DNA from: Candidatus Magasanikbacteria bacterium GW2011_GWA2_56_11
GTDB lineage: Bacteria > Patescibacteriota > Patescibacteriia > Magasanikbacterales > UBA922
Reading direction: 5' to 3'
Assembly: GCA_001004885.1 (NCBI GenBank)
Contig: LCRX01000014.1
Location: 1,565-65,564, forward strand
Length of the DNA stretch: 64,000 bases
Shown here: piece after piece, positions 5,916-41,131 of the stretch
Layout: every line of letters begins with the position of its first letter
Position numbering within the stretch: the first letter of the stretch is position 1
Program-made: the position numbers and the translations under genes
The notes under the pieces: model-generated
Databases searched by the model: none
What the model saw: the letters and a program-made list of their open reading frames with translations, nothing else
What the model was told of the DNA's origin: nothing

Positions 5916-6821
5916 TTATCCGCGGCGCTGCCGCCCTTCCCAGACTACCAGAAGCGGGCTGGCAATAAAAATCGAAGAGTAAGTACCGAAGAAGATGCCG
6001 ATAATCAACGCGAGAGTAAAAAAATGAATTGTCTCCCCGCCGAAGAAGAACAGGGCCGACAGCACCAGAAGAACAGTTACCGAGGTGTTTACAGAGCGCC
6101 AGATAGTCTCGTTGACCGCGACGTTCGCCACTTCCGCGAAATTATTCGCGCTCCGGCGGATGAGATTCTCGCGAATACGGTCGAAAACCACGATGGTATC
6201 GTTGACGGAGTAGCCCAAAATGGTAAGCAGGGCGACGACAAACGGGATATCCACATGGACGTTGAAATAGCGACCTAGCACGGCAAAAACACCCATCGCG
6301 ATGCTGACATCATGGACCAGGGCGACAATAGCGGCTACGCCGTACTTCCAGGAGGCGATCGGCCGCGACACTTTGCGGAAAGCGTAGGCGATATAGGCGA
6401 CAATCGCCACGACTACAGTCAAGCCGGCGAGCCACGCCCGCTCCCGGATAACGGAGCTGACGGCTGGGCCGATGGTTTCCAGCCGCTCTTCCAAAACTTT
6501 GTTATTGTCTTTTTCGTAAGTCTCGCGCACGATTCCTAAAATCTTCTGGTGTTCGTCTTCGGAGATAAAGCGGAGCTTGAGGATGGCGCCTCTGTCCCCG
6601 GTCGGCTGGACGATAACATCTCCCAAACCCAGGGATTCCACTCTTGACTCGATCTCCGGCCCGGCCGGACGGGTCTGTGTAAAGGTAAACTCAAGCAAAG
6701 AGCCGCCGGTAAAGTCTATGCTCGGTTTGAGCCCCCAGACGGCAAGCGCCAACCAGCTCGCGAGCACCAGCAGAGAGGAAAAAATGAAGAAATTGTTCCG
6801 TTTGCCGATGATATTATGCAT
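5916..6821 (-). CDS. secF: protein translocase subunit SecF
   Basis: MHNIIGKRNNFFIF...IDFTGG N-terminus plus C-terminal TM bundle. Start chosen at the conserved Met rather than the longer ORF. Confidence 0.85.
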   Translation of the reverse strand: MHNIIGKRNNFFIFSSLLVLASWLALAVWGLKPSIDFTGGSLLEFTFTQTRPAGPEIESRVESLGLGDVIVQPTGDRGAILKLRFISEDEHQKILGIVRETYEKDNNKVLEERLETIGPAVSSVIRERAWLAGLTVVVAIVAYIAYAFRKVSRPIASWKYGVAAIVALVHDVSIAMGVFAVLGRYFNVHVDIPFVVALLTILGYSVNDTIVVFDRIRENLIRRSANNFAEVANVAVNETIWRSVNTSVTVLLVLSALFFFGGETIHFFTLALIIGIFFGTYSSIFIASPLLVVWEGRQRRG

Positions 6822-6837
6822 AAAACTCTTCTTTACC

Positions 6838-8742
6838 TTATGAACGGTCGCGCTTTCCGCCCAAAAACAGCCAGCCGCCGCTATAATCGGCAAACCAGGC
6901 GGAGACGAAACGCAGAATCACCCGCGTAACGGTAATGGCCGTAAAGAGGCTGACCAGTATGCCGATCGCGAGAGTGATGGCAAACCCCTTGACAAAACTC
7001 GTGCCGAACCAGATAAGAATGGCGCAGGTGATAAGCGTCGATGCGTTGCCGTCGCGGATCGACGTCCAGGCGCGCAAAAAGCCTTCTTCGATCGCGGTTC
7101 TTAAGCTCTTGCCGTGGCGCAATTCTTCCTTGAGCCGCTCGAATATGAGTACGTTGGCATCCACCGCCACTCCCAGGGACATGAGGAAACCGGCGATACC
7201 GGCCAGAGTAATCGTAACGCCGATTAATTTGAAAATAGCCAGCGTGAAGGCGATATAAAGACAAAGAGAAACCACCGAAATCAGGCCGGGCAGCCGGTAA
7301 ATCAAAATCATGAAAATCATGATAAGCAGAGCCCCGATAACGCCGGCTTTCAGGCTCGTAGCGAGAGACTCGGCGCCCAAAGTAGCTCCGATCGCCTGCT
7401 GGGAGATAAGCTCCACCGGTACCGGCAGCGCCCCGGCATTAAGCCTCTGGGCCAAAAGCCTGGCCTCGGTAATAGTGAAATTGCCGCTAATCACGGCGTT
7501 GCCGTCTGCTATGACGGTGTTGACCGTCGGGATGCTTATGGCCTCGCCATCGAGGAAGATGGCGATGGGAGCGCCAATATTGCGCTCGGTAAGATCTTTA
7601 AAGAGGTCGGCGCCTTCACCATTGAATTTGAGAGATACTTGGACGGCGCCTGTCTGCGGGTCGCTCACGACCTCCGCTCGCTCCAGCTGTTTGCCGGAGA
7701 GTCCGGTGGTCTTCCATTCCGAGGCGCTCGGGACGTAATCTTCCGCCGTTTTGGTGCGGACGAGTATGCGCGATACTTCGTATTCCCGGCTTATCCGCTC
7801 GTCTTCTTTAAAAATCACGTGCCAGCCGAATTCGGTCTCCACCGGCCCGATGATTTCGCCTTTTTTCGCGCTGAACAGGGCGTCGGCAAAAGCGCTCGAC
7901 AGCTGTCCGCGGCTTAGCCACCCCAGATCGCCGCCCTGCGATTTGCTGCCCGAGTCGGTGGAATTCTTTTCGGCCAGCTCGGCGAAATTGGCGGCATTAG
8001 CCTGATTGTATAGATCCGCCGCTTTTTGGCGGGCTTCTTCTTTGGTGTATTGCTGTTCGCCCGAGCAATTTCGGGATCCGAGATAGCAAATGAGGATATG
8101 CCTGGCCTTGGCTTGGGGCTCGCCGTCGCGCTCGCCGCCGCGCTTGAGAATATCATAGCCGCGGCTGGTCTCGACCAGGGACTTGGCTACCCCCTGAGGC
8201 GGCGTCTTGGCCGCGACGTCGTATAATTCCGGCTCCAAAGAAAGCGGGCCGACAAATCCGATATAGCCGCCATTGTTCTTACTCTCTTCATGGGCCGAAA
8301 ACTCGCGGGAAAGCGCTGCGAAGTCCTCGCCTTTCTTGGCCCGGGCCAAAATTTCTTCGGCCCTTTTTTTCGCTTCCTGGTTGAATTTATCCAAATCAGC
8401 TTTTTCCTCGGCCGTAAGGTCGCGCGGCGGCTCCCTGTTTTCTTCTTTGAATTCCAAAATCGGGGTCTCGCCGATCATCTTGATCGCCTGGCCAATGTCC
8501 GTTACTCCCGGAAGCTCGACATTAAGGCGGTAGGACTCGCCGACTTGCGACGTTTGCACCGTCGGCTCGCCTACGCCCATGCCGCTGACGCGGCGTTCCA
8601 CGACATCGCGCACGCCCTCCACCGACGCGGCCTGATCGGCCGCCGGTATATCTCTGACATCAGCCTCGTAGATCAGCTGCACTCCGCCCTGCAAATCCAG
8701 CGAGTATTCCGAAAATTCCCCAGCGGAGTTTTCCGCGCACAT
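6838..8742 (-). CDS. secD: protein translocase subunit SecD with two parvulin-type PPIase domains inserted in the periplasmic P1 head
   Basis: LDLQGG P1-base motif, then two PpiC/parvulin domains (signature HILI...GGDLGW...GWHVI), then P1 base and 6 TM helices. TM1 not found in frame, so the N-terminus is uncertain. Confidence 0.8.
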   Translation of the reverse strand: MCAENSAGEFSEYSLDLQGGVQLIYEADVRDIPAADQAASVEGVRDVVERRVSGMGVGEPTVQTSQVGESYRLNVELPGVTDIGQAIKMIGETPILEFKEENREPPRDLTAEEKADLDKFNQEAKKRAEEILARAKKGEDFAALSREFSAHEESKNNGGYIGFVGPLSLEPELYDVAAKTPPQGVAKSLVETSRGYDILKRGGERDGEPQAKARHILICYLGSRNCSGEQQYTKEEARQKAADLYNQANAANFAELAEKNSTDSGSKSQGGDLGWLSRGQLSSAFADALFSAKKGEIIGPVETEFGWHVIFKEDERISREYEVSRILVRTKTAEDYVPSASEWKTTGLSGKQLERAEVVSDPQTGAVQVSLKFNGEGADLFKDLTERNIGAPIAIFLDGEAISIPTVNTVIADGNAVISGNFTITEARLLAQRLNAGALPVPVELISQQAIGATLGAESLATSLKAGVIGALLIMIFMILIYRLPGLISVVSLCLYIAFTLAIFKLIGVTITLAGIAGFLMSLGVAVDANVLIFERLKEELRHGKSLRTAIEEGFLRAWTSIRDGNASTLITCAILIWFGTSFVKGFAITLAIGILVSLFTAITVTRVILRFVSAWFADYSGGWLFLGGKRDRS

Positions 8743-8922
8743 TGACTTTGGGAGTATTCACTGGCATATAAATCGCTCACTAGTGTAGCCGAGGCAGGCT
8801 CACTCGTCAATAGCGGGGTGTGGACGTGTCAGGCCGGCGATTCACGCTCCGTGACAGCGTTTATAATTACTAGCGAGGCCGCAGACGCAAGCTTGCTTGC
8901 ATCTGGGGCGAGCGACGGAATT

Positions 8923-11787
<2,865 letters not shown>

Positions 11788-11928
11788 ATTTGAAGGGCGC
11801 ATAGCCGCTATATAACGGAGATACTGTAGCATTGGCCGACCCATTTGTCCATGGTAAGGCCTACCCTGGGCCAAGCGCCGCCGCTCCCCTGACCGGGCCG
11901 AAAAATCCGCCGGCCGGCGGATTCCCCT

Positions 11929-27483: not shown

Positions 27484-28185
27484 TCAGGCGGAAAAAATGC
27501 TCACCATATTGGGGCCCTCTGCGGCCTCGGTTTTTTGTCCTTTCCGGCTGTAGTACTGCTCGATAACGGCGAGCCCGGCCTCGGCGGCGAGCGCGGCGAG
27601 TACGACAAAGGTAAAACCGTAGTAATACCGTTCGCCGAGTATCTCTCCCTGGCTGTTCTTCCAGGGAACAATAAAATCATTCTCCCCTATTTTCTGCCAC
27701 TCTCCCCGCCGTATTCTGGCCTGCGCGTCATCCGATTCCAGCAGATTCCAGTTGGTGACGACGAGCGGCGCGCCCGGCTTGGCCAGGCGCTTCATTTCCC
27801 TAAGCGCCTCGATTTGGTTCGCGCGCGTCGGCAGATGGTGGAGCGCGGCGACGCAATAGACGGCGTCAAACTCATGGTCCGGCAGGGGCACCAAGCGCAT
27901 ATCCGCGAGGATATACCGGCCCGAAGGATAAGCGGCACGCGCGAGGACCAAAAGCTCTTCGCTCTGGTCCACGCCGACATAATCCACAGAAACCCCGGCA
28001 AACAGCTGGTTTAGCCGGCCATTGCCGCAGCCCAGATCCAGCACGCGGTCGCCGTCCTTCGCGTAGCGGCCAAGCGGCTTCAGGTCCTCCCACAGCTCCG
28101 CGCGCGTATCCGAAAACAGCGGCGCAATACGATTGTACACCGCGCGATTCTGCTCGACGAATTTGTCGGCTTCGTCTTGGTCCAT
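27484..28185 (-). CDS. class I SAM-dependent methyltransferase
   Basis: VLDLGCGNGRL motif I, acidic motif II. Confidence 0.6.
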   Translation of the reverse strand: MDQDEADKFVEQNRAVYNRIAPLFSDTRAELWEDLKPLGRYAKDGDRVLDLGCGNGRLNQLFAGVSVDYVGVDQSEELLVLARAAYPSGRYILADMRLVPLPDHEFDAVYCVAALHHLPTRANQIEALREMKRLAKPGAPLVVTNWNLLESDDAQARIRRGEWQKIGENDFIVPWKNSQGEILGERYYYGFTFVVLAALAAEAGLAVIEQYYSRKGQKTEAAEGPNMVSIFSA

Positions 28186-28393
28186 ATGTCCACTGGCAAA
28201 TGAGCTGTTGATAAACAACGTACAAGATCAGAGTGTCCGCGTCAAACAGTCCCTGGTTGCTATTAGCCGGCCCGGCGCAAGTCTATTCCGCCCCGGGCCA
28301 GAACGGTGTATAATCATACTAAAATTGCCTCATTTGGTCAAAAAAAGGTCGAACCAAAATTAATTTATCTGGCTAAAGCCTGCTCCCATACAT

Positions 28394-28645
28394 ATGATCA
28401 ACACCAAACACCTCCTCAAAGTCGTCCCGGCATGGATGAGCATAGTTTATACCGTCTGTTACGCCGGAGTCGCCATCTATCCGCCGATTAGGGAAATGTT
28501 CATGAAATACTCCCTGCACGCGTCGGTGTCCTTGACCTCGGATTATTTCGGCCTCGCCTATTTTGTTTCCGGCCTCGTTATCTGGAATATCGCCGCCATC
28601 GCCGGCGCCTGGCTGTTCGCGTTCTTGTTCAACAAAATGAAATAA
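28394..28645 (+). CDS. small membrane protein
   Basis: 83 aa, 2-3 TM helices; lies at the GC transition into the AT-rich block. Confidence 0.3.
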   Translation: MINTKHLLKVVPAWMSIVYTVCYAGVAIYPPIREMFMKYSLHASVSLTSDYFGLAYFVSGLVIWNIAAIAGAWLFAFLFNKMK

Positions 28646-28754
28646 ACTAGGATTACCGCTAACCTCCGCGCCGCCATCCCGCCCCGGCATATGCGCTGCT
28701 GGCGCAGAAGACTGGTATAACACTTCTGGCAGATAAACGCGGTACGGCTGCCGT

Positions 28755-29039
28755 TCAAACGGAGCGGCAAGATTTTAATTTTCTGATTAACGAGCTGGCC
28801 AACCAACCGACTCCGTATAGCAGCGCAGCGTTTATTGCGATCGATAAAACATAGGAAACCGGATTGATGCCCGTGCCTACATTGAGAAAAAATATCCAGG
28901 GCGCGGCAGGTATAATAATCTCGATTCCGCACGACCAATCCCCCCGGGGGCAGTCCTCTAGTAAGCCATAGATACCAAGACCGATAGTTATCGTTAAATA
29001 CAATCCTACGAGGACTGGGCCGATTTTTGTTTTCTTCAT
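28755..29039 (-). CDS. small membrane protein (cassette ORF)
   Basis: 94 aa, hydrophobic. Confidence 0.35.
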   Translation of the reverse strand: MKKTKIGPVLVGLYLTITIGLGIYGLLEDCPRGDWSCGIEIIIPAAPWIFFLNVGTGINPVSYVLSIAINAALLYGVGWLASSLIRKLKSCRSV

Positions 29040-29115
29040 ATAACCGGATAAAAAACGCCAGACAAAAATCTTAACCTTTTTGTCCGCCTTAATTACCTAA
29101 AAAATATCAACCATT

Positions 29116-30249
29116 TTATTTTCGTTCAGGATATATCCGATATTCCAGGCAATGATACTCATTGCCGCCCAGACCTTTTTCGTCATACTCAGTTTCAATT
29201 TTTCCGCCTAGCGACTCAGGAATTTTTCGGCTGGAAATATTTTTATCAGCTACGGGATACAAAAGATAATCGTAATCCAAATTTTCGTCCGCCCACTTTT
29301 TAACTGCGACCATTGCTTCTTTGCCATAACCTTTCCCGTGCGCTGATTTTTTTATCCAAACGCCCATTTCTGGAGTTTTTCCATCAACATGGTGTAGGCC
29401 GGCACAGCCGAAAAATTCCTGAGAGTCTTTTGCGACAATTACAAGTTGAAGATTGCTACCTTCGTTCAAACCTTTTAGAGAATTTTCTATAAATACCTCA
29501 ATTCCCGAAATATCTTTGGCCGGAGCTTCATACATGAAAGTTGTTATTTCTGGTGAAAATTCTCTAAAAATTTCATCCCTATACCGCATTGATATTGGCA
29601 CGAGCAAAAGACGTTCGCTTTCTATGCGCTCTGCCAGTAATCCTTGTTCATTTTTCATAATTGGTTTTTCCATGATAAGAAAAACTCTGGACAATTTAAT
29701 TTCATCTTTGTCCGCTTTTTCTTTTAACAAGAGTATCGCCAACGCTGATCCCATGGCCACAATTTTATTTTTTAAAGCCATTTCAACAGCTCTATCGTAA
29801 TCCACTAAAATTACGTCAATGTCTTCTGGTACATAATCGCCGGAGTCATTTTTTTGATCGAGCTTGGATATGTCTTTGCTGAAAAATAAATGTATTTTAC
29901 GGTTAAGTTGACCGTATGTTTCATAAAAAACGCCGAGTTTTGTTAAAGAATTGCATGTATATCCTGTTTCCTCCTCAAATTCTCTCTTTGCGCCCTCCTC
30001 TATGGTCTCGGCGCTTTGATTATATCCTGAAGGAAATTCTATAACCTCATCATCAACCATATAACGGTACTGCTTGATCATGACAAGCTTTTTATCCTCA
30101 GTCATACCCACAACCATGGCTGAATCTGGACTATCCCAATAAGTCCATTCCCTTTTTTCGCCGTTGGGAAGCTCTACTATGTCCTGCCTTACTTTAAAGT
30201 ACTTAGAATCTAAGGCAAGTTTTGATTGTAGACATTTCCATTTTTTCAT
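29116..30249 (-). CDS. NUDIX hydrolase - GNAT N-acetyltransferase fusion protein
   Basis: N-terminal Nudix box GYNQSAETIEEGAKREFEEETGY. C-terminal RimJ/RimL-like GNAT (QLVIVAKDSQEFFGCAGLHHVD...GKGYGKEAM). Confidence 0.6.
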   Translation of the reverse strand: MKKWKCLQSKLALDSKYFKVRQDIVELPNGEKREWTYWDSPDSAMVVGMTEDKKLVMIKQYRYMVDDEVIEFPSGYNQSAETIEEGAKREFEEETGYTCNSLTKLGVFYETYGQLNRKIHLFFSKDISKLDQKNDSGDYVPEDIDVILVDYDRAVEMALKNKIVAMGSALAILLLKEKADKDEIKLSRVFLIMEKPIMKNEQGLLAERIESERLLLVPISMRYRDEIFREFSPEITTFMYEAPAKDISGIEVFIENSLKGLNEGSNLQLVIVAKDSQEFFGCAGLHHVDGKTPEMGVWIKKSAHGKGYGKEAMVAVKKWADENLDYDYLLYPVADKNISSRKIPESLGGKIETEYDEKGLGGNEYHCLEYRIYPERK

Positions 30250-30442
30250 AATTAATTTTATCGTTTTGGCGGGTCGCAAGAGGGGGGCGAAGGTGACGAA
30301 TCGCGGCCTGCCAAAACACCTACTTCAGTTTCCTTATTAGAGCAGTCGGTCGCGCGCATTTTTTTGTCTTCAGCAGGCATTTTCAACTGTTCCCAAAATG
30401 GGAACGGCTGTGATAACGCCGTGTCCCGTTCCTTCATTTTTG

Positions 30443-30589
30443 CCCAGTAAGTTTTTGGTTGTGGCTATCAGTTAAAACACCAACGATATCCAAAATTGAA
30501 AACCACCATTCTTTTTTATAAATGATTTTCCTTATTTCTTTGCCTTTAAACAAGGCAATATGGTGGTTTGGATTTTGAGTGTCTGACAT
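30443..30589 (-). pseudogene. Bro-N/KilA-N-like domain fragment (remnant cassette ORF, under 60 aa)
   Basis: MSDTQNPNHHIALFKGKEIRKIIYKKEWWFSILDIVGVL matches the Bro-N N-terminal pattern; then stop and frameshifted continuation. Confidence 0.3.
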
Positions 30590-30645
30590 AGTGTAATAAT
30601 TTATTAAATATCGGTTCGGCGGGCATTCTATTCGTATTTGGATTA

Positions 30646-31053
30646 CTAATTTTCTTCGTAAAAAACTTCCAATCTCAAACCATCGGGATCGTGAAAGAAA
30701 ACCGCGTAATACAATTCATCTCCGTAGTCCGGGTAATGTCTTGGTTTTCCGTCAGTATTGGCTTTCATTTTAGTGAGAAGTTTGTATAAATCATCCACAA
30801 TTTTCTTTTTCCCCACGGCCATACCAAGGTGATGAAAACCGACCCTATAATGGTCAAACTTGTCAGCAAAATACTCTTTGTGCCCTTGAAAAATAGCTAA
30901 AAAATACGGAAAGTTTTTTGATTGATAATAAACATGCTGTTTATTTGCGAACGCGATAGTAAAACCGAGGGAGCCAAGCACTTTATCATACCAAAGTTTA
31001 GACTTTCTCAAGTTTTTTACGGTAAGAACGAAATGACTTCTTTTTTCAATCAT
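30646..31053 (-). CDS. VOC family protein (glyoxalase/bleomycin-resistance fold)
   Basis: 135 aa; HHLGMAV...DPDGLRLEVF pattern. Confidence 0.55.
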   Translation of the reverse strand: MIEKRSHFVLTVKNLRKSKLWYDKVLGSLGFTIAFANKQHVYYQSKNFPYFLAIFQGHKEYFADKFDHYRVGFHHLGMAVGKKKIVDDLYKLLTKMKANTDGKPRHYPDYGDELYYAVFFHDPDGLRLEVFYEEN

Positions 31054-31084
31054 ATGTTTTATTCATAATTGTCTGTATTTTATT

Positions 31085-31143
31085 GCGCCTAACGTCCGTG
31101 CATATGCGCGATGTTTCAATATCGTATATACGCTGTTAGGCGC
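31085..31143 (-). repeat. attC-like recombination site (59 bp)
   Basis: GCGCCTAAC ... GTTAGGCGC perfect inverse cores; begins 12 bp after the cupin stop codon. Confidence 0.6.
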
Positions 31144-31154
31144 GGTTTCGCCGA

Positions 31155-31514
31155 TCACAGCACCTCCTCGTCCTCCTTGTGCCACGCCGGATCGACAATA
31201 CAGAGGAACACAAGATCGGTCTTTCCTGAGTTGCGAATATACTGTTGTGTGTTTGGCGGGATATACACGGCCTGGCCCGGACAAACTTTTTTCGACTCCT
31301 CGCCGATCTGCATGACCCCTTCGCCTTCGAGAATGTAATAGACTTCTGACGTCTTCAACTTATGCGGATAAGAGGTTTTTCCCGGCTTGACTACTGCGTG
31401 CGCCAGACTGTAGCGGAGTTCAAGATCGTCTTTCTCCGGATGCAAGAGTTCGCGCAGGATTGTATTGTCTCCGGCGATGAACTCTTCACAATCTTTTAGA
31501 TCTTTGATAAACAT
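31155..31514 (-). CDS. cupin domain protein
   Basis: 119 aa, conserved cupin Gly/His pattern. Confidence 0.55.
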   Translation of the reverse strand: MFIKDLKDCEEFIAGDNTILRELLHPEKDDLELRYSLAHAVVKPGKTSYPHKLKTSEVYYILEGEGVMQIGEESKKVCPGQAVYIPPNTQQYIRNSGKTDLVFLCIVDPAWHKEDEEVL

Positions 31515-31528
31515 AGGCGAAACAATTT

Positions 31529-31601
31529 CAGCTAATGTTTGCGCGATATGACGTGCGGAGCATATGGGCGGGTGGCGCGAACCGTGTACACGCTTAGGAC
31601 G
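31529..31601 (-). repeat. attC-like site (degenerate cores)
   Basis: cagctaatgtttgcgcg ... gtgtacacgcttaggacg inverted ends; followed by GNRA hairpin gggcGAAAgccc. Confidence 0.45.
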
Positions 31602-31642
31602 TGATAAGGGCGAAAGCCCCGCAGCGATATCGCCGTACCCGT

Positions 31643-32773
31643 TTATTTCATGAAAATATCAATATATTTTCGATAGACAAATGCGCGGTCGTAGGTTTCT
31701 TTGGCGTCTTTCAATTCAAGAATATCAAGGTTCATAAATCTGTCGATAAGTTTTTGGGATCCAACGCGAGAAAATTTGGTCCACTCCATTATTGTTTTAC
31801 TTGAGACAATCGGCTGAGCATACAATTTTCGTAATACCAAAACACCGCTTGCCGACTCTCTCTTCGCCAGGGATTGAATTTTTGCCATGTCGTTTTCTCG
31901 AAGTTTGGTAATTTGTTTTGATACGGATATTGAATCGTTGGCTGTTTCAATGACGCCATCAAGAAAAAAATCAATCCACGATTCAACCTCGCCAAAATGA
32001 TAATCATGCAGTTTTTGGTAGTAAATTTTTTGATGTTTTTTAAAATATGACGATAAAAATAATACCGGCCGCTCAAGCATGTTGCGGTGGCAAAGAAGCA
32101 TGGTTATCAATAAGCGGCCGGCTCTTCCGTTGCCATCAAGAAACGGGTGTATCGTTTCAAATTGGGCGTGAGTAAGGGCGGCGTGGATTAAGGGAAGAGC
32201 TAATTTTTCGTTGTGTAAGAATTTTTCCAGATCATTCAAAGCCCTGTTCATCTCACTCACTGTCGGCGGGACAAATGAAGCATTATTCGGCGTCGTTCCG
32301 CCAATCCAGTTCTGTGATTTGCGGAATTCGCCCGGATCGGCAAAATGAGTGGCGCGGGCATCAGTCATCAATTGCGCGTGTATTTCGCGGATCAATCGCA
32401 AAGAGAGCGGAAAATCTTTTAGTCGTTCAACACCGTAGTTGAGTGCTTTGATGTAGAACAAAATATCGTCAGCATCAGTTTTTTTAACCGTTACGCCGGC
32501 ATTCATTTCTATCGCATCGGCCATACTGGCCTTAGTGCCCTCAATTTGAGAAGAGGAAGCCGCGTCTTTAGCGACGAACATGGAAAGAAAAAAGTCCACA
32601 TCAGGCAGGGTGTGGGTTATACCGTCCAGTTTACCGATTAAGCGGTCCGCTTCTGCCGCTTTAATCAGTATGGCCTGTGATAATTCGAGCAATCCTTTAG
32701 GGGGGAACGGACGTGGCACAAAGGCGGTAAAACCCTCTGTTTGTTTGACATTTTGACCGATTTCAATTTTCAT
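31643..32773 (-). CDS. Fic family protein (AMPylator) with winged-helix domains
   Basis: Fic motif HPFLDGNGRAGR. Confidence 0.8.
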   Translation of the reverse strand: MKIEIGQNVKQTEGFTAFVPRPFPPKGLLELSQAILIKAAEADRLIGKLDGITHTLPDVDFFLSMFVAKDAASSSQIEGTKASMADAIEMNAGVTVKKTDADDILFYIKALNYGVERLKDFPLSLRLIREIHAQLMTDARATHFADPGEFRKSQNWIGGTTPNNASFVPPTVSEMNRALNDLEKFLHNEKLALPLIHAALTHAQFETIHPFLDGNGRAGRLLITMLLCHRNMLERPVLFLSSYFKKHQKIYYQKLHDYHFGEVESWIDFFLDGVIETANDSISVSKQITKLRENDMAKIQSLAKRESASGVLVLRKLYAQPIVSSKTIMEWTKFSRVGSQKLIDRFMNLDILELKDAKETYDRAFVYRKYIDIFMK

Positions 32774-32805
32774 AGATAGTTTACTAGTTTTTTATGATAT
32801 AAACT

Positions 32806-32834
32806 ATCTTATACCTTAGTTTATATGTTGTCAA
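32806..32834 (-). promoter_or_regulatory. sigma70-like promoter for fic with overlapping 10-bp inverted repeat (possible operator)
   Basis: Minus strand TTGACA, 17 nt, TAAGAT. Inverted repeat agatagttta/taaactatct (32775-32809) overlaps the -10 and TSS. Confidence 0.35.
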
Positions 32835-33045
32835 GAGATGAAAACTAAGTATTTTTTTATTCGCTTAGAAGAGCGAATAATGGCCCTCCGGTTCTTTCTT
32901 TTTTGGCCCAAATGTCAACGCATTCATCTTAACCATTAGCGGCCATTATGCGATAAGGAAATTTTCTTACCTTTTTTAAATGTTCTTCCAGAGTATATCC
33001 AATTAATGAATTGGCGCCGAATGCGTATAGGCTGTGAGCAAAATA

Positions 33046-33660
33046 TCACAAGCAGTAATTAATCAAAAAAATATCCATCTCTTGATTTTTGGCGATATTG
33101 TTTAAAAAATAAGCCAGTTTGAATCTTAAATTGCCATCCCATATAATATTTTCGATTCTGCACTGGCCGAACTCCGACAAGGTTTCAAATGTAAAACTTT
33201 TTGGAATTTTAATAACTACATTAGGCGTAATGTATCGTTTAGTTAGATTAAACATTTCTCGCGTGCTTGGTTGCGTATCATCAATGTTGTTTGCGTGAGT
33301 AGGAGGATTTACCCCTTGCATATTCCATTCGGGGTCAAGTATTGCCACATCAGCTGGCAAGCTTTTTAATAAATCAGGATCGAGCGCATCGCCAACGATG
33401 AAGTTAGTCCTCTCTTCTACCCCATATAATACAGCGTTCTTTTTGGCGTCCTCTATCCTTGATGGAATTATATCAACGCCACATGCGCTTTTTAAATGTT
33501 TTGCTAATTGCACGACAATCATGCCGGTGGCGCAACATAGTTCAACTGCGGTTTTAAATTGCGCTAGACTTTTGGCTATGTGTTCACCCACAAATTCAGG
33601 GCAGCTCATATCATAAGCATCCCGATCGGAGAATATATTTTTTGTGAATTTTTTCTTCAT
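33046..33660 (-). CDS. SAM-dependent methyltransferase, Tgs1/RNA-cap guanine-N2 MTase-like
   Basis: VELCCATGMIVVQLA...GVDI...DAKKNAVLYGV...FIVGDALD pattern. Confidence 0.5.
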   Translation of the reverse strand: MKKKFTKNIFSDRDAYDMSCPEFVGEHIAKSLAQFKTAVELCCATGMIVVQLAKHLKSACGVDIIPSRIEDAKKNAVLYGVEERTNFIVGDALDPDLLKSLPADVAILDPEWNMQGVNPPTHANNIDDTQPSTREMFNLTKRYITPNVVIKIPKSFTFETLSEFGQCRIENIIWDGNLRFKLAYFLNNIAKNQEMDIFLINYCL

Positions 33661-33716
33661 AATTCAAGTACGCGCTTTTTCCTGGACCCCACACACGCTG
33701 TTATACTATGTATCGC

Positions 33717-34337
33717 TCAAACCGTCATCTCTACGGCAAAAAGTTCTTTTCTGCATGTGGTCATAATACCGACATGGCAAGCAGCGACCTTGGTGGCCGT
33801 AAATTTTAACGGCAAGATTTCCTGCCCCGCTGCTTCTTTGGTTCGGATTGTAATGTGCGGATCAAAAGCCTCGAAACTGTGAGACGCTGCGAATTTATTT
33901 ATCCAGTCTGGTTCAGCCACTTCCTCGCCCGTTCTTGAGAAAAGCGATCCTTTCGTGCAGTCATATGAAAAGTATTGTCGAAGCCCGTTCATAAGATTCT
34001 CATGAAGCCGCTGTAATTCAGAGGATTTTCTTGCGCGGACGGCATAGATTTTAGATCCATCGGATTTTTCTGCGTAATATAACTCCGCTAGCTCAACGAG
34101 AATCGGACTAAAGTTTTTTACTATACCTTCGACAATACTTTTCACGGTTTCGAGGCTGTCGTCTTCAATGCCACCCATAGCCAATGACATGTGCGGCAGG
34201 AAATCATCTTTCGCCAGCGGACCCCAAGCCGCATTTCTAGTTGCTGCTTGCTGGTTAATATCAATTATCTTTTCCATTACATCTAGGGGCGGAAGAATGG
34301 CCACATCTATTGCTAACTTTTTAGAGATTGTGTTCAT
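33717..34337 (-). CDS. 2H phosphoesterase superfamily protein (LigT / 2'-5' RNA ligase-like)
   Basis: Two H-x-T/S-x motifs (PHMSLA and PHITIR). Confidence 0.5.
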   Translation of the reverse strand: MNTISKKLAIDVAILPPLDVMEKIIDINQQAATRNAAWGPLAKDDFLPHMSLAMGGIEDDSLETVKSIVEGIVKNFSPILVELAELYYAEKSDGSKIYAVRARKSSELQRLHENLMNGLRQYFSYDCTKGSLFSRTGEEVAEPDWINKFAASHSFEAFDPHITIRTKEAAGQEILPLKFTATKVAACHVGIMTTCRKELFAVEMTV

Positions 34338-34370
34338 AGGATTACGCAGAGAGAGATACTTCGCCTAACG

Positions 34371-34489
34371 TTCGCGCCGATGCAAAGTTGCTGCGCGGTA
34401 CAATTTAACGCGGGGCGCTCTAGCGCGCAACAATTTGGATGAGCACGCCCACAAGGAGCGAACTGCGCATGCGCTGTTGTACGATGACC
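34371..34489 (-). repeat. attC-like site
   Basis: + strand cgcctaacgttcgcg ... cgctgttgtacgatgac. Cassette orientation: TACAAC...cgcgaacGTTAGGCG. Confidence 0.5.
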
Positions 34490-34496
34490 ACTTTTT

Positions 34497-34670
34497 CTAT
34501 TTCTTTTTTAAACCGTTCTTTTGCGCGTAAGCTCGTGCTGCTGCAGCGCTCGAACCGCCAGTATATTTCGGTTTAGTTTTTATACTGGCAGAAACAGTTA
34601 CGCCGTCTGTATCTGTTTCTATAGTTATTGAATTGCCTTTGTTGTCGGAATAAGTTTCGATTTTACCCAT
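34497..34670 (-). CDS. small cassette ORF (57 aa, below ORF-track cutoff)
   Basis: MGKIETYSDNKGNSITIETDTDGVTVSASIKTKPKYTGGSSAAAARAYAQKNGLKKK between two attC-like sites. Confidence 0.25.
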   Translation of the reverse strand: MGKIETYSDNKGNSITIETDTDGVTVSASIKTKPKYTGGSSAAAARAYAQKNGLKKK

Positions 34671-34717
34671 ATTGTCTAGATTAAAAGTGATTTAAGTGAT
34701 ATAGAAAAAGTGGCTTT

Positions 34718-34915
34718 CGCGCAACGTTCGTGTGTATGTGAAGTTTTCATCCCGTTTTAACGGAATTACTTTAATTATCAAACACACCTTTTTTAATAAA
34801 CTCCACCCAAATCCTCATCCCTTAAACAGAGAGGATTTAGGTGGAGGAAAATTGGCGCTCTTTAAGGATTTAATTAACGCCAATTTTCCGTGGCCAGATA
34901 TGCGTTGTTATGTCC
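34718..34915 (-). repeat. attC-like site (long, ~200 bp, with 16-bp internal hairpin)
   Basis: cgcgcaacgttcgtgtgtatg ... gatatgcgttgttatgtcc ends. Internal stem ctccacccaaatcctc/gaggatttaggtggag. Confidence 0.45.
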
Positions 34916-34945
34916 TGTAAAAAAAATTTTGCCAAGCTTTTTCTG

Positions 34946-35197
34946 TTATTCTTCAGTGTTTACTCCTACTCCATCATAATATGGCTCATCATCGGCATTG
35001 CAAGATACAAAATTAAGTTCTATACCTCCTTCAAATTTAATAGTAACACCCCCTGAATTATCGAGTTCAAATCCCACTACTACTTTCCCCATTAAAGTCC
35101 CGAGCCGCTTTTCTAATCTCCTCGCGGGTGTATCTTTCTCAACTACCTCCTCAACTACCTCGACTTTTGATATTTCCCTAGGATTTCCTTCAGACAT
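34946..35197 (-). CDS. small acidic hypothetical protein (cassette ORF)
   Basis: 83 aa. Confidence 0.35.
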   Translation of the reverse strand: MSEGNPREISKVEVVEEVVEKDTPARRLEKRLGTLMGKVVVGFELDNSGGVTIKFEGGIELNFVSCNADDEPYYDGVGVNTEE

Positions 35198-35233
35198 ACA
35201 TTAATTATTTAATGATTAAAAATTTTTATTATG

Positions 35234-35340
35234 GCGTATAACGTCGTGTGCATGCGATATGGCACAATGATATATTTTACTCATCATTGTGCCATATGGG
35301 CGAGGCTTCAGCCGAGTCGCATGCACGCTATTATGTGATG
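35234..35340 (-). repeat. attC-like site
   Basis: gcgtataacgtcgtgtgcatgcg ... gcatgcacgctattatgtg ends; central 11-bp hairpin tggcacaatga/tcattgtgcca. Confidence 0.5.
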
Positions 35341-35345
35341 TCGCG

Positions 35346-36041
35346 CTAATTTTTCTGCTCTTTAAAAGAGATATCCTTCATTAAAGTATCAAGTCCATCG
35401 GCCTTGCTGTAACTTACAACCGCTTGGAGGTGATAATCGCCAAATGCATTCGGTACAAAATATTCCAGTCGACTGATTTGCCCCTGGTCAAACATTTTCT
35501 CGAAATAGTCTGTTTTTACACGCAATGCATTTTTGCCATTCACGCTTACTTTTTGCGCGGTGGCATTTTTATTTTCGTAACCAAGCGCCTTTATTATTTC
35601 AGATTCTGACTGGTTAAAGTTAATGCATTCAAAACAAGTAGTGCTGTAATCTGCTGCTGCCGGAGCAAAATCTTTCGTTTCCCACCAAAGTTGCGGCGTT
35701 GATGGAGCATTATCAACGCTTGTATATTTTTCATTTGCAAAGCCAATTTTAAATAGCTTTCCTATGCCGTCTTTGTGTGTCTCATCTGTAAATTTTGGTG
35801 TGCCCCACGAATTGTTATAACAGAAAGAAAGATTTTGCGATTCATACATTGTCCAGTTTTGGGGACATTCTACTTTTGTTTCTGTGCGCTCGACTGTCTT
35901 TTCACTTACAACTCGTGTTGAGGTAATGTCGGGTGCTGTCTCAGCATTTCTATTTTGCCAAAGAAAAATGCCACCGCCTACAACGACGACTGTAACTATA
36001 ACAGCAAGGCCGATTGTCCATGGATTAGTTTTGTACTCCAT
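35346..36041 (-). CDS. membrane-anchored/secreted hypothetical protein (cassette ORF)
   Basis: 231 aa, N-terminal TM, Cys-containing extracytoplasmic domain. Confidence 0.45.
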   Translation of the reverse strand: MEYKTNPWTIGLAVIVTVVVVGGGIFLWQNRNAETAPDITSTRVVSEKTVERTETKVECPQNWTMYESQNLSFCYNNSWGTPKFTDETHKDGIGKLFKIGFANEKYTSVDNAPSTPQLWWETKDFAPAAADYSTTCFECINFNQSESEIIKALGYENKNATAQKVSVNGKNALRVKTDYFEKMFDQGQISRLEYFVPNAFGDYHLQAVVSYSKADGLDTLMKDISFKEQKN

Positions 36042-36100
36042 AATGTTTTGGTTAAGAATTAAACCTACTTTAATGTAAAAGAAAAATTAGCGCAATTTCG

Positions 36101-36163
36101 CATAACCTTCGCGTCTCATCTACTGTAGAGCGCTTGCGGAATGGCGGGTAGACGCTGTTATGT
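36101..36163 (-). repeat. attC-like site (~63 bp)
   Basis: Cassette orientation: (stop)TAACagcgtc ... gagacgcgaagGTTATGCG. The Nudix stop codon lies inside the R''-like core. Confidence 0.5.
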
Positions 36164-36682
36164 GATGTGCATCCCGGAGCCAACATTATTTGAAAAATAG
36201 TCAACACATTCTTTGGTAGATTTTAGAAAAATATCAGGAAAATCAGCTAATTTCTTAAGTAACTCCTCTCTAGAGAACCATTTTATTTGTTCGACTTCTT
36301 CCTTTTGGATTGTAAACTCATGAATATCTTTATCTAACAAGGCAAAATACCACTGTACAAAATGTTTATGTTTACCGTCATTCATTTTATAAAACGCCTT
36401 TTCGAAGTGACAGTTATTTAAACCAATTTCTTCCTCGGCCTCCTTAATGATATTTGATTCATAGGTTTCTCCCTGGTCAATGGTCCCTGCAACGGCAGGC
36501 CCCCATTTTCCGGGGTCATGCTTTTTGTTGAATGATCGTTGGGCTAGGAGGGTGTCACCTTTAGAATTCTGAATCCATAAGGCCGAGACGCGATAGATGT
36601 CTTCTGGTTTCAAAGTTCCTCGCTCTTTCAATCCAATGACGCTATCCTTTTCATCGACAATTATAATTTTTGCCTTACTCAT
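36158..36682 (-). CDS. NUDIX hydrolase
   Basis: Nudix box GTIDQGETYESNIIKEAEEEIGL. Confidence 0.6.
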   Translation of the reverse strand: MSKAKIIIVDEKDSVIGLKERGTLKPEDIYRVSALWIQNSKGDTLLAQRSFNKKHDPGKWGPAVAGTIDQGETYESNIIKEAEEEIGLNNCHFEKAFYKMNDGKHKHFVQWYFALLDKDIHEFTIQKEEVEQIKWFSREELLKKLADFPDIFLKSTKECVDYFSNNVGSGMHIT

Positions 36683-36731
36683 ATTCGTTTACAATTCAAT
36701 GCTTTCTTGCGAAAAGCTCCGGGCAGCATAT

Positions 36732-36861
36732 CACATAACGTTCGCGCGTATCGATGTTCACTGGCTGTATAATATCGCGAAGCGGTACAGCCAGCAAATA
36801 TGGGCGGAGGCTTGCGGAGGAACGGAGCAAGCCGTAGCCGCATACACGCTGTTAGCTGATG
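36732..36861 (-). repeat. attC-like site
   Basis: Cassette orientation: catcAGCTAACagcgtgtatg ... catcgatacgcgcgaacGTTATGTG; central 8-bp hairpin. Confidence 0.5.
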
Positions 36862-36904
36862 TAAATAAATTCAATGAGCGAAGCGAATATTATTCAGACA
36901 AATT

Positions 36905-37513
36905 TTAAAAAAATCCCAAGAGATTGAAAAACAATCTAACAGAAAAAATGATAATCACTAACGATGCCAGGAAATTGAAACTAGCGATTATTTTTTTGTT
37001 GCCGGTTTTATTGATCGCTGAACCTAGATAGACGACTACAACGAAACAAAGAAATGATCCGATTGACAAAGATAGTGAGTTAGCTATGATTGTTTGAAAG
37101 ATATGCTCTTTTATGTTTAGAAAGGAAGTTGCGACTCCAATAAAATAAACATAAGTAAGAGGAGATAGCGCACAGAGAACCATTCCATTTAGAAAGGATT
37201 GTTTTTCAATCGGGTTGTCACTATTACTTAACTTTCCAAGACTTTTTAGAAAACCTGTTATTCCAACGAATAACATATAGCCGACGCCGACCATTCCGAT
37301 ACCATAATACAGCCAAGGAATTTTTATAAATTGACTGATTCCAAAGTAGCTCAATACAAGAATAATAAAGTTCATTGTCGCTACACCAGATGCCAAAACA
37401 ATCCCTTGGCGTTTTTTACCAAGAAGCGAAGTTTGTAATACTGTTGTTTGAATCACACCTGGGGAGGCGGCGGCGCTAAAACCGATTATAAAGCTTGAAA
37501 GTAATAGTGACAT
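36905..37513 (-). CDS. LysE/RhtB family amino-acid exporter
   Basis: 202 aa, 6 TM helices, LysE-type N-terminal pattern. Confidence 0.6.
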   Translation of the reverse strand: MSLLLSSFIIGFSAAASPGVIQTTVLQTSLLGKKRQGIVLASGVATMNFIILVLSYFGISQFIKIPWLYYGIGMVGVGYMLFVGITGFLKSLGKLSNSDNPIEKQSFLNGMVLCALSPLTYVYFIGVATSFLNIKEHIFQTIIANSLSLSIGSFLCFVVVVYLGSAINKTGNKKIIASFNFLASLVIIIFSVRLFFNLLGFF

Positions 37514-37570
37514 TTTTTAAAATTTGTCTGAATAATTTTTCGGCCACAGCCGAAAAGAATTTATTTATTT

Positions 37571-37673
37571 CAGCTAACGTTTCGGCATATCTGATGTTTG
37601 CCGTAGCGTAGCGGAGGCAAATATGGGTGGAGGCTTTTGTAAAAAGCCGTAACCAGATATGCCGAACATCTCA
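37571..37673 (-). repeat. attC-like site
   Basis: cagctaacgtttcggcatatctg ... cagatatgccgaacatc inverted arms; the HNH stop codon abuts the site. Confidence 0.5.
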
Positions 37674-38264
37674 ATCAATACCTTCAGTTTTTAACAGTGC
37701 TTTAACGCATAACGAGTATTCTTTGTCTTCTTCTGCCTCTGGTTTTATGCTTTCTAATACTGCTTCTTTTGCACTATCTTCTAGCTTTGCACATGCTCCA
37801 ATAACTTTTTTGAGCAAATTGATTCTATCTTGTCGTCTTTCAATTAAAGCTGGGCGGTTTAGGTGCACGCCGCTTTGCTCTTCAATGGTAATTTTTCCTT
37901 TTGTTGAATTATCCTTATGTGCAAAGAAAGCTCCCAATACGACTATATGTGTTTCGGGGTCTTCATCGTATGGATTAAGGATTGGATTTGCTTCATCATA
38001 TTTGTCAGATTTATAGCCGTTGCAACGTGCACAGACGTATCCTAAATTTCCCCAATCAAATTCTAAGCCTGGGAATTTTGACTTTGGCTTTATGTGTTCA
38101 ATGTCACCGTAGTAAGTATGGGATACTTTGCTTTCGCAATACATGCATTTATCATGACTGGCCAAGATGAGAACCGCCTTGTTGTCAGGGTGTTTATAAT
38201 TTGTTCTCAATGCCTCTTGATTTGGGCATTGTGGTCTACTTAGTTTGATCATTTGAATTTTCAA
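37671..38264 (-). CDS. HNH endonuclease (PtuB-like)
   Basis: CMYCESK...GDIEHIKPKS...CARCNGYK HNH/zinc motif; overlaps the ATPase gene by 29 bp. Confidence 0.6.
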   Translation of the reverse strand: MKIQMIKLSRPQCPNQEALRTNYKHPDNKAVLILASHDKCMYCESKVSHTYYGDIEHIKPKSKFPGLEFDWGNLGYVCARCNGYKSDKYDEANPILNPYDEDPETHIVVLGAFFAHKDNSTKGKITIEEQSGVHLNRPALIERRQDRINLLKKVIGACAKLEDSAKEAVLESIKPEAEEDKEYSLCVKALLKTEGID

Positions 38265-39480
38265 TTAAGCTGTAAACGGCTTCGGGCATGATTTTCTCTA
38301 GTCCCATTTCCTTTAACTCATTGCGCATTTGAGTAAATTTTTCTTTGGTAATGCTTTCTTTCGAGTATTTTGCGACTATCTCATTCAACTTATCTTCTAC
38401 CCATATTGGCATTGTAAAGGCCACGCCCAAAACTTCATCCAATATTTCCGCCGCTGTCTTTGCTTTATTTATGAAGTCTAGTCGTTCACTGACAATTTTA
38501 TTGTTTTCGTTATATCTCAAGGCGTATACATTTGATTCTTTAACTGAACCAACAATGAGCGGATTATGAGTAGAGACGATAAAGCGTGTATTTGGAAACG
38601 CCCCAAGGAAGTCTGGCAATATTTGCCGTTGCATTGTCGGATGAAGATGATTTTCAACTTCATCTATTAAAACAGTAAAATTGGGATTATCTTTTTCCTC
38701 TGTGGCATAAAAATAAATTTGCCAAGCAAGGTCTATTATTGCGCTTATTCCACCAGATGAAGCATCAATAACAAACTCACCTGATGTACAAATCAGTAGA
38801 ACCTCTGAGTTTCGTATAGCAAATTTTTGAAAACCTAAAGTTTTGGGCAGTACTTTTTTAAGTACCTCTTGAAAACCATTGTAATATTCGAGAAGGGTTT
38901 CATTCGCATCCATATCTTTGTTGCCTTGGCCAAAAATACTCCAGCAAATGAGAGCTTCTTTTATATGAAAACTACTTGGAACGTCATTTCCGCCACCATA
39001 TCTACTTTTGTTACTATTCCAAACTTTATCGAAAGCCTGTTTTTTGTTGATTGTATTTGCGGTTGGAATTTGAGTTACTTTTTGGTATCTGAATATTGAT
39101 CTATGTGAGGGGATGAAAAAGCACTTTACTCCTTGTTGCCCCTCGATTTGCATGTTGTATTGTGCCTCGTTTTGTTCTTTTGGCACCTTCAATATAGCTT
39201 TTTGTCCATCACTATAATTTAATTCACCTTTAGTATCTTTTGGCTCCTCATCTTCCACCCAAAAGGAAGAGAACCATTTCCAAACCTTGGTTTTTATGTC
39301 CTTTTTTGGAGTTGCTAAGGATTTTGCATCCCAACCGCAATGTCTTGCTAAAAGATGCAACAGAGTTGTTTTACCACTTGCATTTGCGCCTGTTAAAATA
39401 GTCAACCGATCATGGAAATCTATTTCGATATTTTCAAATTGTTGCCACTCCGCTGTAATTTTTAATTTTTTGAAATCCAT
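38236..39480 (-). CDS. AAA_21/ABC-type ATPase (PtuA/OLD-like)
   Basis: Walker A GANASGKTT. Walker B VLIDEVENHLHP. STHNP motif. Confidence 0.65.
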   Translation of the reverse strand: MDFKKLKITAEWQQFENIEIDFHDRLTILTGANASGKTTLLHLLARHCGWDAKSLATPKKDIKTKVWKWFSSFWVEDEEPKDTKGELNYSDGQKAILKVPKEQNEAQYNMQIEGQQGVKCFFIPSHRSIFRYQKVTQIPTANTINKKQAFDKVWNSNKSRYGGGNDVPSSFHIKEALICWSIFGQGNKDMDANETLLEYYNGFQEVLKKVLPKTLGFQKFAIRNSEVLLICTSGEFVIDASSGGISAIIDLAWQIYFYATEEKDNPNFTVLIDEVENHLHPTMQRQILPDFLGAFPNTRFIVSTHNPLIVGSVKESNVYALRYNENNKIVSERLDFINKAKTAAEILDEVLGVAFTMPIWVEDKLNEIVAKYSKESITKEKFTQMRNELKEMGLEKIMPEAVYSLIENSNDQTK

Positions 39481-39501
39481 AGATTGATCCTACTGCAAAA
39501 C

Positions 39502-40440: not shown

Positions 40441-40607
40441 AGTGTAAATTTACTTACTGTTATTGTATTCGTTTTCCCCTTATAAATAAATCGTTTTCGG
40501 AGCAAAGCGGAGAAAACACCTTATATCCCCTTTAAAAATAAAGAAAAAGAAATTTGAAAATTTTTTAAAACAATTGGGCGATAGCCCAAAAAAGAAAAGG
40601 AATATTT

Positions 40608-40750
40608 CAGCTAATGTTCGCGTGTATGAGAAGTTTCGCCGACTTCCTTACTCTTAATTATAGAGGAGGCGAAATTTGGGTGAAAGAAAAAGTGCAGCCG
40701 CTGAAAAATATTAACGCACTTTTTCTTAAACCTCATACACCCTGTTAGGC
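40608..40750 (-). repeat. attC-like site (~143 bp) after the first cassette
   Basis: Cassette orientation: (stop TAA inside) GCCTAACagggtgtatgag ... ctcatacacgcgaacATTAGCTG. Confidence 0.55.
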
Positions 40751-41080
40751 GATGTATTCTTTTTCTTTGTTATCATCTTTATTTTTATTTTTTTCATCAT
40801 AGTACTCATAATTTTTCTTATTGCCCCAAACTCTAAATTTGGCAACCATAAAACCACTGATGATAAGTGCCACTCCTATTTTCCAGTTTATAAAGAGAAA
40901 AATTAATCCTGCGATTACTAATTCTCCAGTAATCACGCTTAATAGAGGATTTGGTCCCAAAGGAAAAACGTGCAATAGCGTGCCAATGATGAAAAGCACT
41001 ATTGATACTTGCCAGTTGAAAAAAATAAAAACGATTGCGGCGATTGCCATCAGATACTTTATTGCGTTTAGAATTTTCAT
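40745..41080 (-). CDS. small membrane protein (first cassette after attI-like site)
   Basis: 111 aa, 3 TM helices, Lys/Asp-rich tail; stop codon inside GCCTAAC. Confidence 0.4.
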   Translation of the reverse strand: MKILNAIKYLMAIAAIVFIFFNWQVSIVLFIIGTLLHVFPLGPNPLLSVITGELVIAGLIFLFINWKIGVALIISGFMVAKFRVWGNKKNYEYYDEKNKNKDDNKEKEYIA

Positions 41081-41104
41081 AATTTTATCTTAAAAGAAAA
41101 AGAA

Positions 41105-41131
41105 TATTTCACCTAACTGGCCGTTATAACC
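41105..41131 (-). other. attI-like site (GTTAGGT core) between cassette 1 and the recombinase gene
   Basis: Minus strand GTTATAACggccaGTTAGGTgaaatatt. The gaaat(a/t) motif after the core is shared with the R' ends of attC sites at 40608 and 37571. Confidence 0.4.

Follow-up and report, generated by a model that had tools for sequence, protein, structure and literature searches.

SecDF is driven by the proton-motive force, and the P1 head of this motor, whose amphiphilic cavity cross-links to precursors, moves in a swinging motion among its Super-F, F and I states (2018 review, PMC5974789). Parvulin-type chaperones are found around the same machinery. In Escherichia coli, PpiD-YfgM is bound to SecY at the translocon (PMC9643414, PMC8669966), and SurA binds the periplasmic domains of the holo-translocon, its two parvulins being placed on the P1 head of SecDF by AlphaFold and electron microscopy (PMC9987972); in monoderms, post-translocational folding is carried out by the lipoprotein PrsA, a parvulin foldase (PMC12445088). 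How unfolded proteins are handed over from SecYEG to such folding helpers is an open question, and the present evidence is biochemical or low-resolution. We describe here a SecD that carries two parvulin-type peptidyl-prolyl isomerase (PPIase) domains within P1. It is encoded in a stretch of 64,000 nucleotides (the window) from contig LCRX01000014.1 of Candidatus Magasanikbacteria bacterium GW2011_GWA2_56_11, a member of the candidate phyla radiation (CPR)/Patescibacteria, and similar proteins occur in several CPR groups.

Position of the parvulin insert in SecD

The product of the secD open reading frame (ORF) at 6838-8742 is 100% identical to the protein annotated as "Protein translocase subunit SecD" of the same bacterium. 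It scores 371.3 bits against the NCBIfam SecD model TIGR01129 (cut-off 244.4), which spans residues 15-610, and Pfam assigns SecD_1st to residues 42-102, SecDF_P1_head to 345-441 (profile positions 18-114) and SecD_SecF_C to 443-613, together with two stretches of Rotamase_3 and Rotamase (E 3e-44 and 3e-41). These matches bear out the original prediction, made from the letters alone, of a SecD with two PpiC/parvulin domains following the LDLQGG motif, the first partial and the second complete; the motifs it had named (LDLQGG, GYIGFV, HILI, GGDLGW and GWHVIF) are all present. When the two halves of the insert were scanned alone (Rotamase cut-off 21.7 bits), each recovered the family independently. 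Residues 100-205 match Rotamase with E 7.5e-16 and 59.3 bits over profile positions 12-94 of 97, the first strand (beta1) being missing, and residues 206-320 match with E 1.3e-25 and 90.7 bits over positions 1-94 of 97 (Rotamase_3, E 1.4e-30). Such scores lie far outside what chance would give.

The SecD portion aligns with the SecDF of Thermus thermophilus (PDB 3AQP; phmmer E 5e-72) in two blocks, query residues 14-100 corresponding to 36-117 and 348-611 to 160-423. The insert, about 240 residues forming two parvulin folds, thus stands in place of the connector of about 40 residues (Thermus 118-159) that joins base to head in the canonical protein. It follows the strand ("LEFR/LEFKE") with which the N-terminal P1-base segment closes and leads into the P1 head, after which the chain passes through the remaining base to transmembrane segments (TM) 2-6. 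In this respect the original prediction needs correcting, since it had put the insert inside the head and had the chain resume with the base: the site is the base-to-head connection, outside the head fold, and it is the head that follows. In its other parts the protein resembles canonical SecD and SecDF (T. thermophilus 3AQP/5YHF; Deinococcus 5XAN/5XAP). The P1 base, head and TM2-6 align, AlphaFold places helices at 453-614 in agreement with a five-TM C-terminal part, and the conserved proton-pathway Asp of "AVDANVLIFER" in the TM region is kept (D528, invariant in the 43-sequence alignment described below). As for canonical SecD, the gene is partnered by an adjoining secF, with secA upstream.

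The base-to-head site varies in other SecDs as well. In some it holds only 4 residues, in three sequences (P0144, P0150 and P0159) it is occupied by a Glu/Lys-rich low-complexity stretch of 60-100 amino acids (aa), and forms of about 780-830 aa (P0172, P0178, P0181 and similar) have an extra, unassigned region of about 170 aa before the parvulin. This variety marks the site as a general hot-spot for insertions in SecD P1.

A parvulin is present in no solved SecDF and in no curated NCBIfam SecD or SecDF model, and a Foldseek search found the combined architecture in none of the solved structures. Scanned alone, the insert matches only the SurA, PrsA and PpiC models of NCBIfam. The 993-position SecDF model NF009585, whose alignment over query residues 234-611 had hinted that it might hold a parvulin, was set aside: the insert by itself matches no SecD or SecDF model, and NF009585 falls below its cut-off in all long SecDF representatives.

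Predicted fold, active sites and nearest parvulins

Full-length modelling with AlphaFold (mean predicted local distance difference test (pLDDT) 80.8; predicted template-modelling score (pTM) 0.44) returned the parvulin fold, a four-stranded sheet with helices, at pLDDT >90 in the insert, and added to it a nested strand topology. A separate model of residues 92-352 (pLDDT 91.7, pTM 0.75) has the same strands. Two long strands, 195-218 and 306-329, are unbroken in both models: the former runs from the last strand of domain 1 (beta4') straight into beta1 of domain 2 (RHILI), and the latter from beta4 of domain 2 (GWHVIF) straight into "EYEVSRILVRT". Within this continuation a return strand, a degenerate version of the "xHILx" beta1 (Table 1), extends domain 2 beta4, pairs with domain 1 beta4' and so completes domain 1 in both models. 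In parvulins, beta1 and beta4 are adjacent antiparallel strands that carry the two histidines. A single two-stranded ribbon would thereby supply domain 2 with its H215/H308 pair and domain 1 with its missing beta1 (321-329). The models and the sequence together lead us to predict a module of two interlocked parvulins on one two-stranded beta-ribbon, an outer degenerate domain (108-203 plus 321-329) and an inner canonical one (212-312). The strand pairing is supported by the residue pattern, since the strands that come together in domain 2 have each retained their histidine and those that come together in domain 1 have each lost it.

By Foldseek, the whole model matches SecDF (E 1e-20), and its single domains, taken from a predicted model, resemble the PPIase domains of Pin1, PrsA and SurA-P2 at template-modelling (TM) scores of 0.79-0.87 and root-mean-square deviations (rmsd) of 1.9-3 Å. 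Domain 2 superposes on the PPIase domains of Pin1 and PrsA with TM-scores, normalised to those domains, of 0.84-0.87 and an rmsd of about 2 Å; for Staphylococcus aureus and Bacillus anthracis PrsA the TM-scores are 0.83-0.84.

Active-site residues were mapped by alignment with human Pin1 and E. coli Par10, and their conservation was assessed in 43 sequences (the window ORF and 42 homologues, 59-66% identity). In domain 2, H215 corresponds to H59 of Pin1, D263 to C113, T303 to T152, F305 to S154 and H308 to H157, and L273 and F285 map to the hydrophobic proline pocket (codons at 8098-8100 for H215, 7954-7956 for D263 and 7819-7821 for H308). Asp is the usual bacterial alternative to Pin1 C113, and the Phe at the position of S154 is as in Par10. 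Both histidines are invariant, and D263 and T303 are at least 90% conserved. Domain 2 is accordingly equipped, by sequence, with a complete Par10-like active site and is predicted to be catalytically competent. Domain 1 is predicted to be catalytically dead: GGYIG replaces GGDLG, no beta1 histidine is present, and beta4' reads GYDIL, with D197 at the histidine position (GYNIL in most homologues), versus the GxHxx of active parvulins.

Two cysteines, C219 and C226, lie in the beta1-alpha1 loop of domain 2 ("HILICYLGxxxC"; window 8065-8088, minus strand) and are likewise invariant in all 43 Magasanikbacteria-type sequences. They may be joined by a disulphide outside the cytoplasm, located where Pin1 has its phosphate-binding loop; in Pin1 the beta1-alpha1 loop bears phosphate-binding basic residues. 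Such Pin1-type basic residues are absent from the loop in domain 2, so phospho-specificity is not expected.

The module can be set against three described parvulin chaperones. Like PrsA, it would display a parvulin PPIase at the outside of the cytoplasmic membrane in a cell that has no outer membrane; PrsA has a lipoprotein anchor and a single parvulin, whereas the parvulins here are anchored via SecD and are tandem and nested. With SurA it shares two consecutive parvulins, of which the first is inactive and the second active (predicted activities in the case of SecD). SurA residues 193-384 are colinear with the insert (NF008038, 86 bits, far from its cut-off of 394), and SurA is the top Foldseek match for the tandem (1M5Y). 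Given that SurA's parvulins have been placed on the P1 head of SecDF (PMC9987972), the fusion is the covalent counterpart of this contact. The inter-domain orientation differs, however, with a TM-score of 0.36 and an rmsd of about 14 Å over both domains, and in SecD the beta1 of the first domain comes from after the second. SurA, moreover, is a soluble periplasmic protein of diderms with a core N/C chaperone domain that the SecD module lacks. PpiD-YfgM at SecYEG embodies the same concept, a parvulin chaperone at the translocon exit (PMC9643414, PMC8669966), but PpiD is a separate single-pass protein whose inactive parvulin sits inside a SurA-like chaperone domain and which binds SecY, not SecD. 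The PrsA, SurA and PpiD models of NCBIfam match only with their own parvulin parts and far below their cut-offs, no SurA_N-type or other chaperone-domain Pfam match was found in SecD at E <=0.1, and the module, internal to SecD P1, has no export or anchor signal of its own (such as the PrsA lipobox, SurA signal peptide or PpiD N-terminal TM).

Relatives and origin of the nested form

An exhaustive HMMER search of 1.84 billion cluster representatives (50% identity) provided the best 150 matches; 149 of these were aligned with the window ORF, and the resulting set of 150 sequences was scanned with hidden Markov models (HMMs) of five segments. Among these best matches a parvulin stands directly before the head in 66 sequences (65 representatives and the window ORF), and Pfam confirmed Rotamase in nine of ten sampled representatives. 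The parvulin-bearing proteins fall into three forms: a double form of about 650-705 aa, to which the window protein belongs, a single-parvulin form of about 530-625 aa and a SecD-SecF fusion with parvulin of about 1000-1100 aa. At least 16 genome loci have a SecD ORF ordered base-parvulin-head-TM, and are labelled Magasanikbacteria, Uhrbacteria, Moranbacteria (single form), Parcubacteria, Gracilibacteria or "Patescibacteria group". Loci L016-L080 of the genome scan, which used a generic parvulin motif, are ordinary PpiC/SurA-like parvulins and not SecD. The long fusion form occurs in Candidatus Peregrinibacteria, Gracilibacteria and Patescibacteria, with Rotamase in 118 of its 120 best matches. 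Two Peregrinibacteria-type SecDF fusions, P0292 and P0296 (962 and 978 aa; 56-57% identical to P0153), are without Rotamase, as though certain lineages had lost the parvulin secondarily.

Among the matches listed, the architecture is found only in CPR/Patescibacteria where the source is credibly named. Several records of metagenome-assembled genomes with Magasanikbacteria-like parvulin-SecD genes (L001, L002, L005, L014 and P0018; 42-64% identity to the window segment) bear the names "uncultured Gammaproteobacteria", "Candidatus Binatia" or "Kapabacteria", probably through taxonomic mislabelling or mis-binning. The suggestion that this is not a standard SecD is supported and can be refined. 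The architecture is non-canonical relative to E. coli and Thermus SecD and to the curated models; judged from the sequences, it is not rare but the common form in several CPR groups.

This distribution also bears on whether the fusion could be an artefact, arising from a chimeric contig or from reading through secD into a distinct prsA/ppiC gene or the reverse. Apart from the general risk attached to metagenome bins, all that speaks for an artefact is a compositionally foreign 14-kb segment elsewhere in the window. The parvulins are internal to P1, with SecD sequence on both sides in one frame, and the same arrangement recurs in hundreds of independent assemblies (NCBI, JGI, ENA and Logan). 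Because all 120 of the best homologues (60-67% identity, 651-716 aa) share the same Pfam set, and because distant CPR lineages repeat the arrangement, we regard an assembly chimera as vanishingly improbable.

The single-parvulin relatives account for the partial appearance of the first domain. In 11 single-parvulin SecDs the order is alpha1...GGDLG...G[YWF]H[IV][IV] (beta4), a Glu/Gly-rich linker and then xSHILx (beta1), that is, beta4 precedes beta1. On this motif order, the parvulin of the single form is circularly permuted and has both histidines in place. When the trailing strand was shifted to the front, the match to the canonical parvulin HMM grew from about 27-110 to about 3-107 in ten of the 11. 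The double form reads [alpha..beta4' degenerate]-[SHILI..GGDLG..GYHII]-[SRILV degenerate]. The ancestral form appears to have been a single permuted parvulin, of which the Magasanikbacteria form would be a duplicated, nested version with the nested canonical domain staying active. As an alternative origin, the colinear SurA match could point to a SurA-like P1-P2 tandem.

Neither a SecD-parvulin fusion nor a permuted parvulin is described in the full-text literature searched, although absence there is no proof. The proteins themselves are already public, annotated plainly as SecD or SecDF, and their precomputed Pfam matches show Rotamase. We found no paper on the parvulin-SecD architecture, which is thus apparently undescribed although its sequences are available.

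Proposed function and the state of the locus

We propose that the module is probably a translocon-tethered foldase or holdase, in which two interlocked parvulins are built into the SecD P1 region of the SecDF motor, a reading drawn from sequence, predicted structure and analogy with known chaperones. Built into one of the two chain segments between base and head, the module would lie beside the substrate-binding head at the channel exit. The P1 head would capture the chain emerging from SecYEG and swing, the attached parvulins would bind the unfolded chain at the channel exit, domain 2 would catalyse prolyl cis/trans isomerisation, and domain 1 would act as a scaffold or offer additional surface for binding. 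The module would in this way do in cis what PrsA in monoderms, and PpiD and SurA in diderms, do in trans. The analysis shows the architecture, how far it is conserved, the pattern of residues and the predicted topology; we infer that the module is catalytically active, touches substrate and is coupled to movement of the head.

An alternative role is that of a non-catalytic holdase or binding surface, or of a structural spacer of the P1 head, similar to PpiD or the P1 domain of SurA. It would fit the retention of domain 1 in all homologues despite its lost catalytic histidines, the unrelated Glu-rich inserts of P0144, P0150 and P0159, which imply that the site tolerates non-enzymatic filler, and the ability of PrsA active-site mutants still to secrete (PMC12445088). 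The conservation of domain 2, with its invariant histidine pair and nearly constant D263 and T303, is at odds with it. The pair (xHILx plus G[YFW]Hxx) also persists in most of the listed single and double forms, down to 36-40% identity and even across the permutation, whereas a domain with a structural role alone tends to shed these residues, as happened in domain 1. We consider a purely non-catalytic role unlikely, though it is the main rival.

Several points weigh against the proposed foldase function. A full active site is not proof of a relevant isomerase role, because the parvulins of PpiD and of SurA P1 are inactive and mutations in the active site of PrsA barely affect secretion (PMC12445088). 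At a pTM of only 0.44, the full-length model does not fix where the module lies with respect to head, base and SecYEG. The strand pairing of the nested topology comes from AlphaFold and the pattern of residue retention. Finally, the secD copy in this genome lacks TM1 as assembled (see below) and in that state could not place P1 outside the cell.

The fusion matters beyond this bacterium. Conservation of a covalent link between parvulins and SecD P1 across a whole radiation gives independent evolutionary support to the functional link between the two, and parvulin-SecD offers a compact, single-polypeptide test system for the connection between translocon and foldase. The permuted parvulin and the pair of an active domain nested in an inactive one are of structural interest as a curiosity, and the fusion could illustrate how CPR cells with reduced genomes bring envelope proteostasis together in the translocon. 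No second parvulin gene was found within the window. In a bolder version of the proposal, CPR bacteria would have exchanged free PrsA, PpiD or SurA for a foldase built into SecDF, a "pull-and-fold" machine that mechanically couples the proton-driven swing of the head to capture, prolyl isomerisation and release of the emerging chain, and the module would provide the first example of a nested, circularly permuted parvulin topology. The fusion would then amount to natural Rosetta-stone evidence for an action of parvulin chaperones at the SecDF P1 head throughout bacteria. This version is tentative and on balance unlikely; the finding would gain weight from a demonstration that the module is coupled to SecDF motion or has taken the place of PrsA.

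The features of the locus are collected in Table 1. secA, secD and secF form a three-gene cluster on the minus strand, and the secF ORF, which is intact, matches SecD_SecF_C (E 1.8e-56) and Sec_GG in Pfam.

Table 1. Features of the secA-secD-secF locus (window positions)
Feature	Position	Strand	Description and basis
secA	8923..11874	-	Directly upstream of secD; translation: SecA motifs and C-terminal CPCGSGKKYKRCHGA zinc-finger tail
True secD 5' end, other frame	8699..8767	-	MPVNTPKVNVRGKLRWGIFGILA, cytoplasmic N-terminus and start of TM1; frame stops at 8660; three-frame translation
Annotated secD ORF	6838..8742	-	634 aa plus stop; N-terminally shortened relative to homologues of 676-687 aa; TIGR01129
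P1 base, N-terminal part	8431..8703	-	Residues 14-104, LDLQGG ... PILEFKEE; SecD_1st; aligns with T. thermophilus SecDF 36-117
Parvulin domain 1	8128..8421	-	Residues 108-205; alpha1 to beta4', no N-terminal beta1; Rotamase; Pin1/Par10 alignment
Parvulin domain 2	7795..8127	-	Residues 206-316, complete, canonical order; H215, D263, T303, H308, C219/C226
Return strand REYEVSRILVRT	7753..7788	-	Residues 319-330; degenerate "xHILx" beta1, His replaced by Arg325; both AlphaFold models
P1 head subdomain	7408..7722	-	Residues 341-445; SecDF_P1_head; T. thermophilus alignment from residue 160 on
P1 base, C-terminal part, and TM2-TM6	6886..7407	-	Includes D528; Pfam, T. thermophilus alignment, AlphaFold
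secF	5916..6821	-	Directly downstream of secD; likely start ATG 6821 (MHNIIGK...); mechanical ORF reaches 6893

The 5' end of secD is damaged. An ATG at 8767 opens MPVNTPKVNVRGKLRWGIFGILAGFAGRSAADLRG, followed by a stop, in one frame, and "EYSLDLQGG..." runs on in another. In homologues the N-terminus has the pattern M..(K/R)..R.K(I/L)RWG(I/V).GI....L and is followed by TM1 and by a linker of about 25 residues ending in "(R/N)LGLDLQGG" (for example, "IRGKIRWGIAGIFALL...RLGLDLQGG"). Compared with these, about 120 nucleotides (nt), a length of 2 mod 3, have been deleted, which results in an out-of-frame join and the loss of about 40 residues comprising the rest of TM1 and the linker. TM1 is absent from the called ORF and present in all 42 of the aligned homologues.

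The copy of secD in this assembly is either mis-assembled or inactive. A real deletion and frameshift of about 120 nt would make it a pseudogene, with parvulin-SecD functional only in the relatives. The change of frame between the SecD N-terminus MPVNTPKVNVRGKLRWGIFGIL and LDLQGG..., the absence of about 40 residues found in every homologue, and the start of the called ORF at an internal ATG with the non-hydrophobic MCAENSAGEFSEYS are all as such a lesion would leave them. Yet the 620 remaining residues are free of further stops and frameshifts and keep all invariant positions of the family, and the neighbouring secF is intact. Such intactness fits a lesion of very recent date or, as the simpler reading, a local error of short-read assembly in a metagenome bin of the 2015 era. 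On these grounds an assembly error seems the more likely cause of the loss of TM1, and a pseudogene is unlikely, though the possibility deserves some weight.

The spacer between secA and secD (about 8843-8949, minus strand) contains a further irregularity. The 27 nt with which secA ends (AAATATAAGCGCTGTCACGGCGCTTGA, coding for KYKRCHGA and a stop) recur imperfectly about 70 nt downstream as AATTATAAACGCTGTCACGGAGCGTGA, which encodes NYKRCHGA and a stop. This repeat may be a small duplication scar and, together with the deletion at the secD 5' end, suggests that this short interval has been rearranged or poorly assembled.

Elsewhere in the window, an island of about 14 kb (28000-42000) has a GC content of 0.37-0.45 versus 0.52-0.63 in the rest, and is probably either horizontally acquired or a mis-joined contig segment. 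Its large ORFs, from about 29 to 40.5 kb, are all on the minus strand and have accessory functions, encoding NUDIX+GNAT, Fic/DOC, methyltransferase, 2'-5' RNA-ligase-like, NUDIX, LysE and DUF4268 proteins. An AAA_21/AAA_15 ATPase gene (38236-39480, minus strand) overlaps the immediately downstream gene for an HNH endonuclease (37671-38264, minus strand), and the pair (37671-39480) resembles the Septu (PtuA/PtuB) anti-phage defence system.

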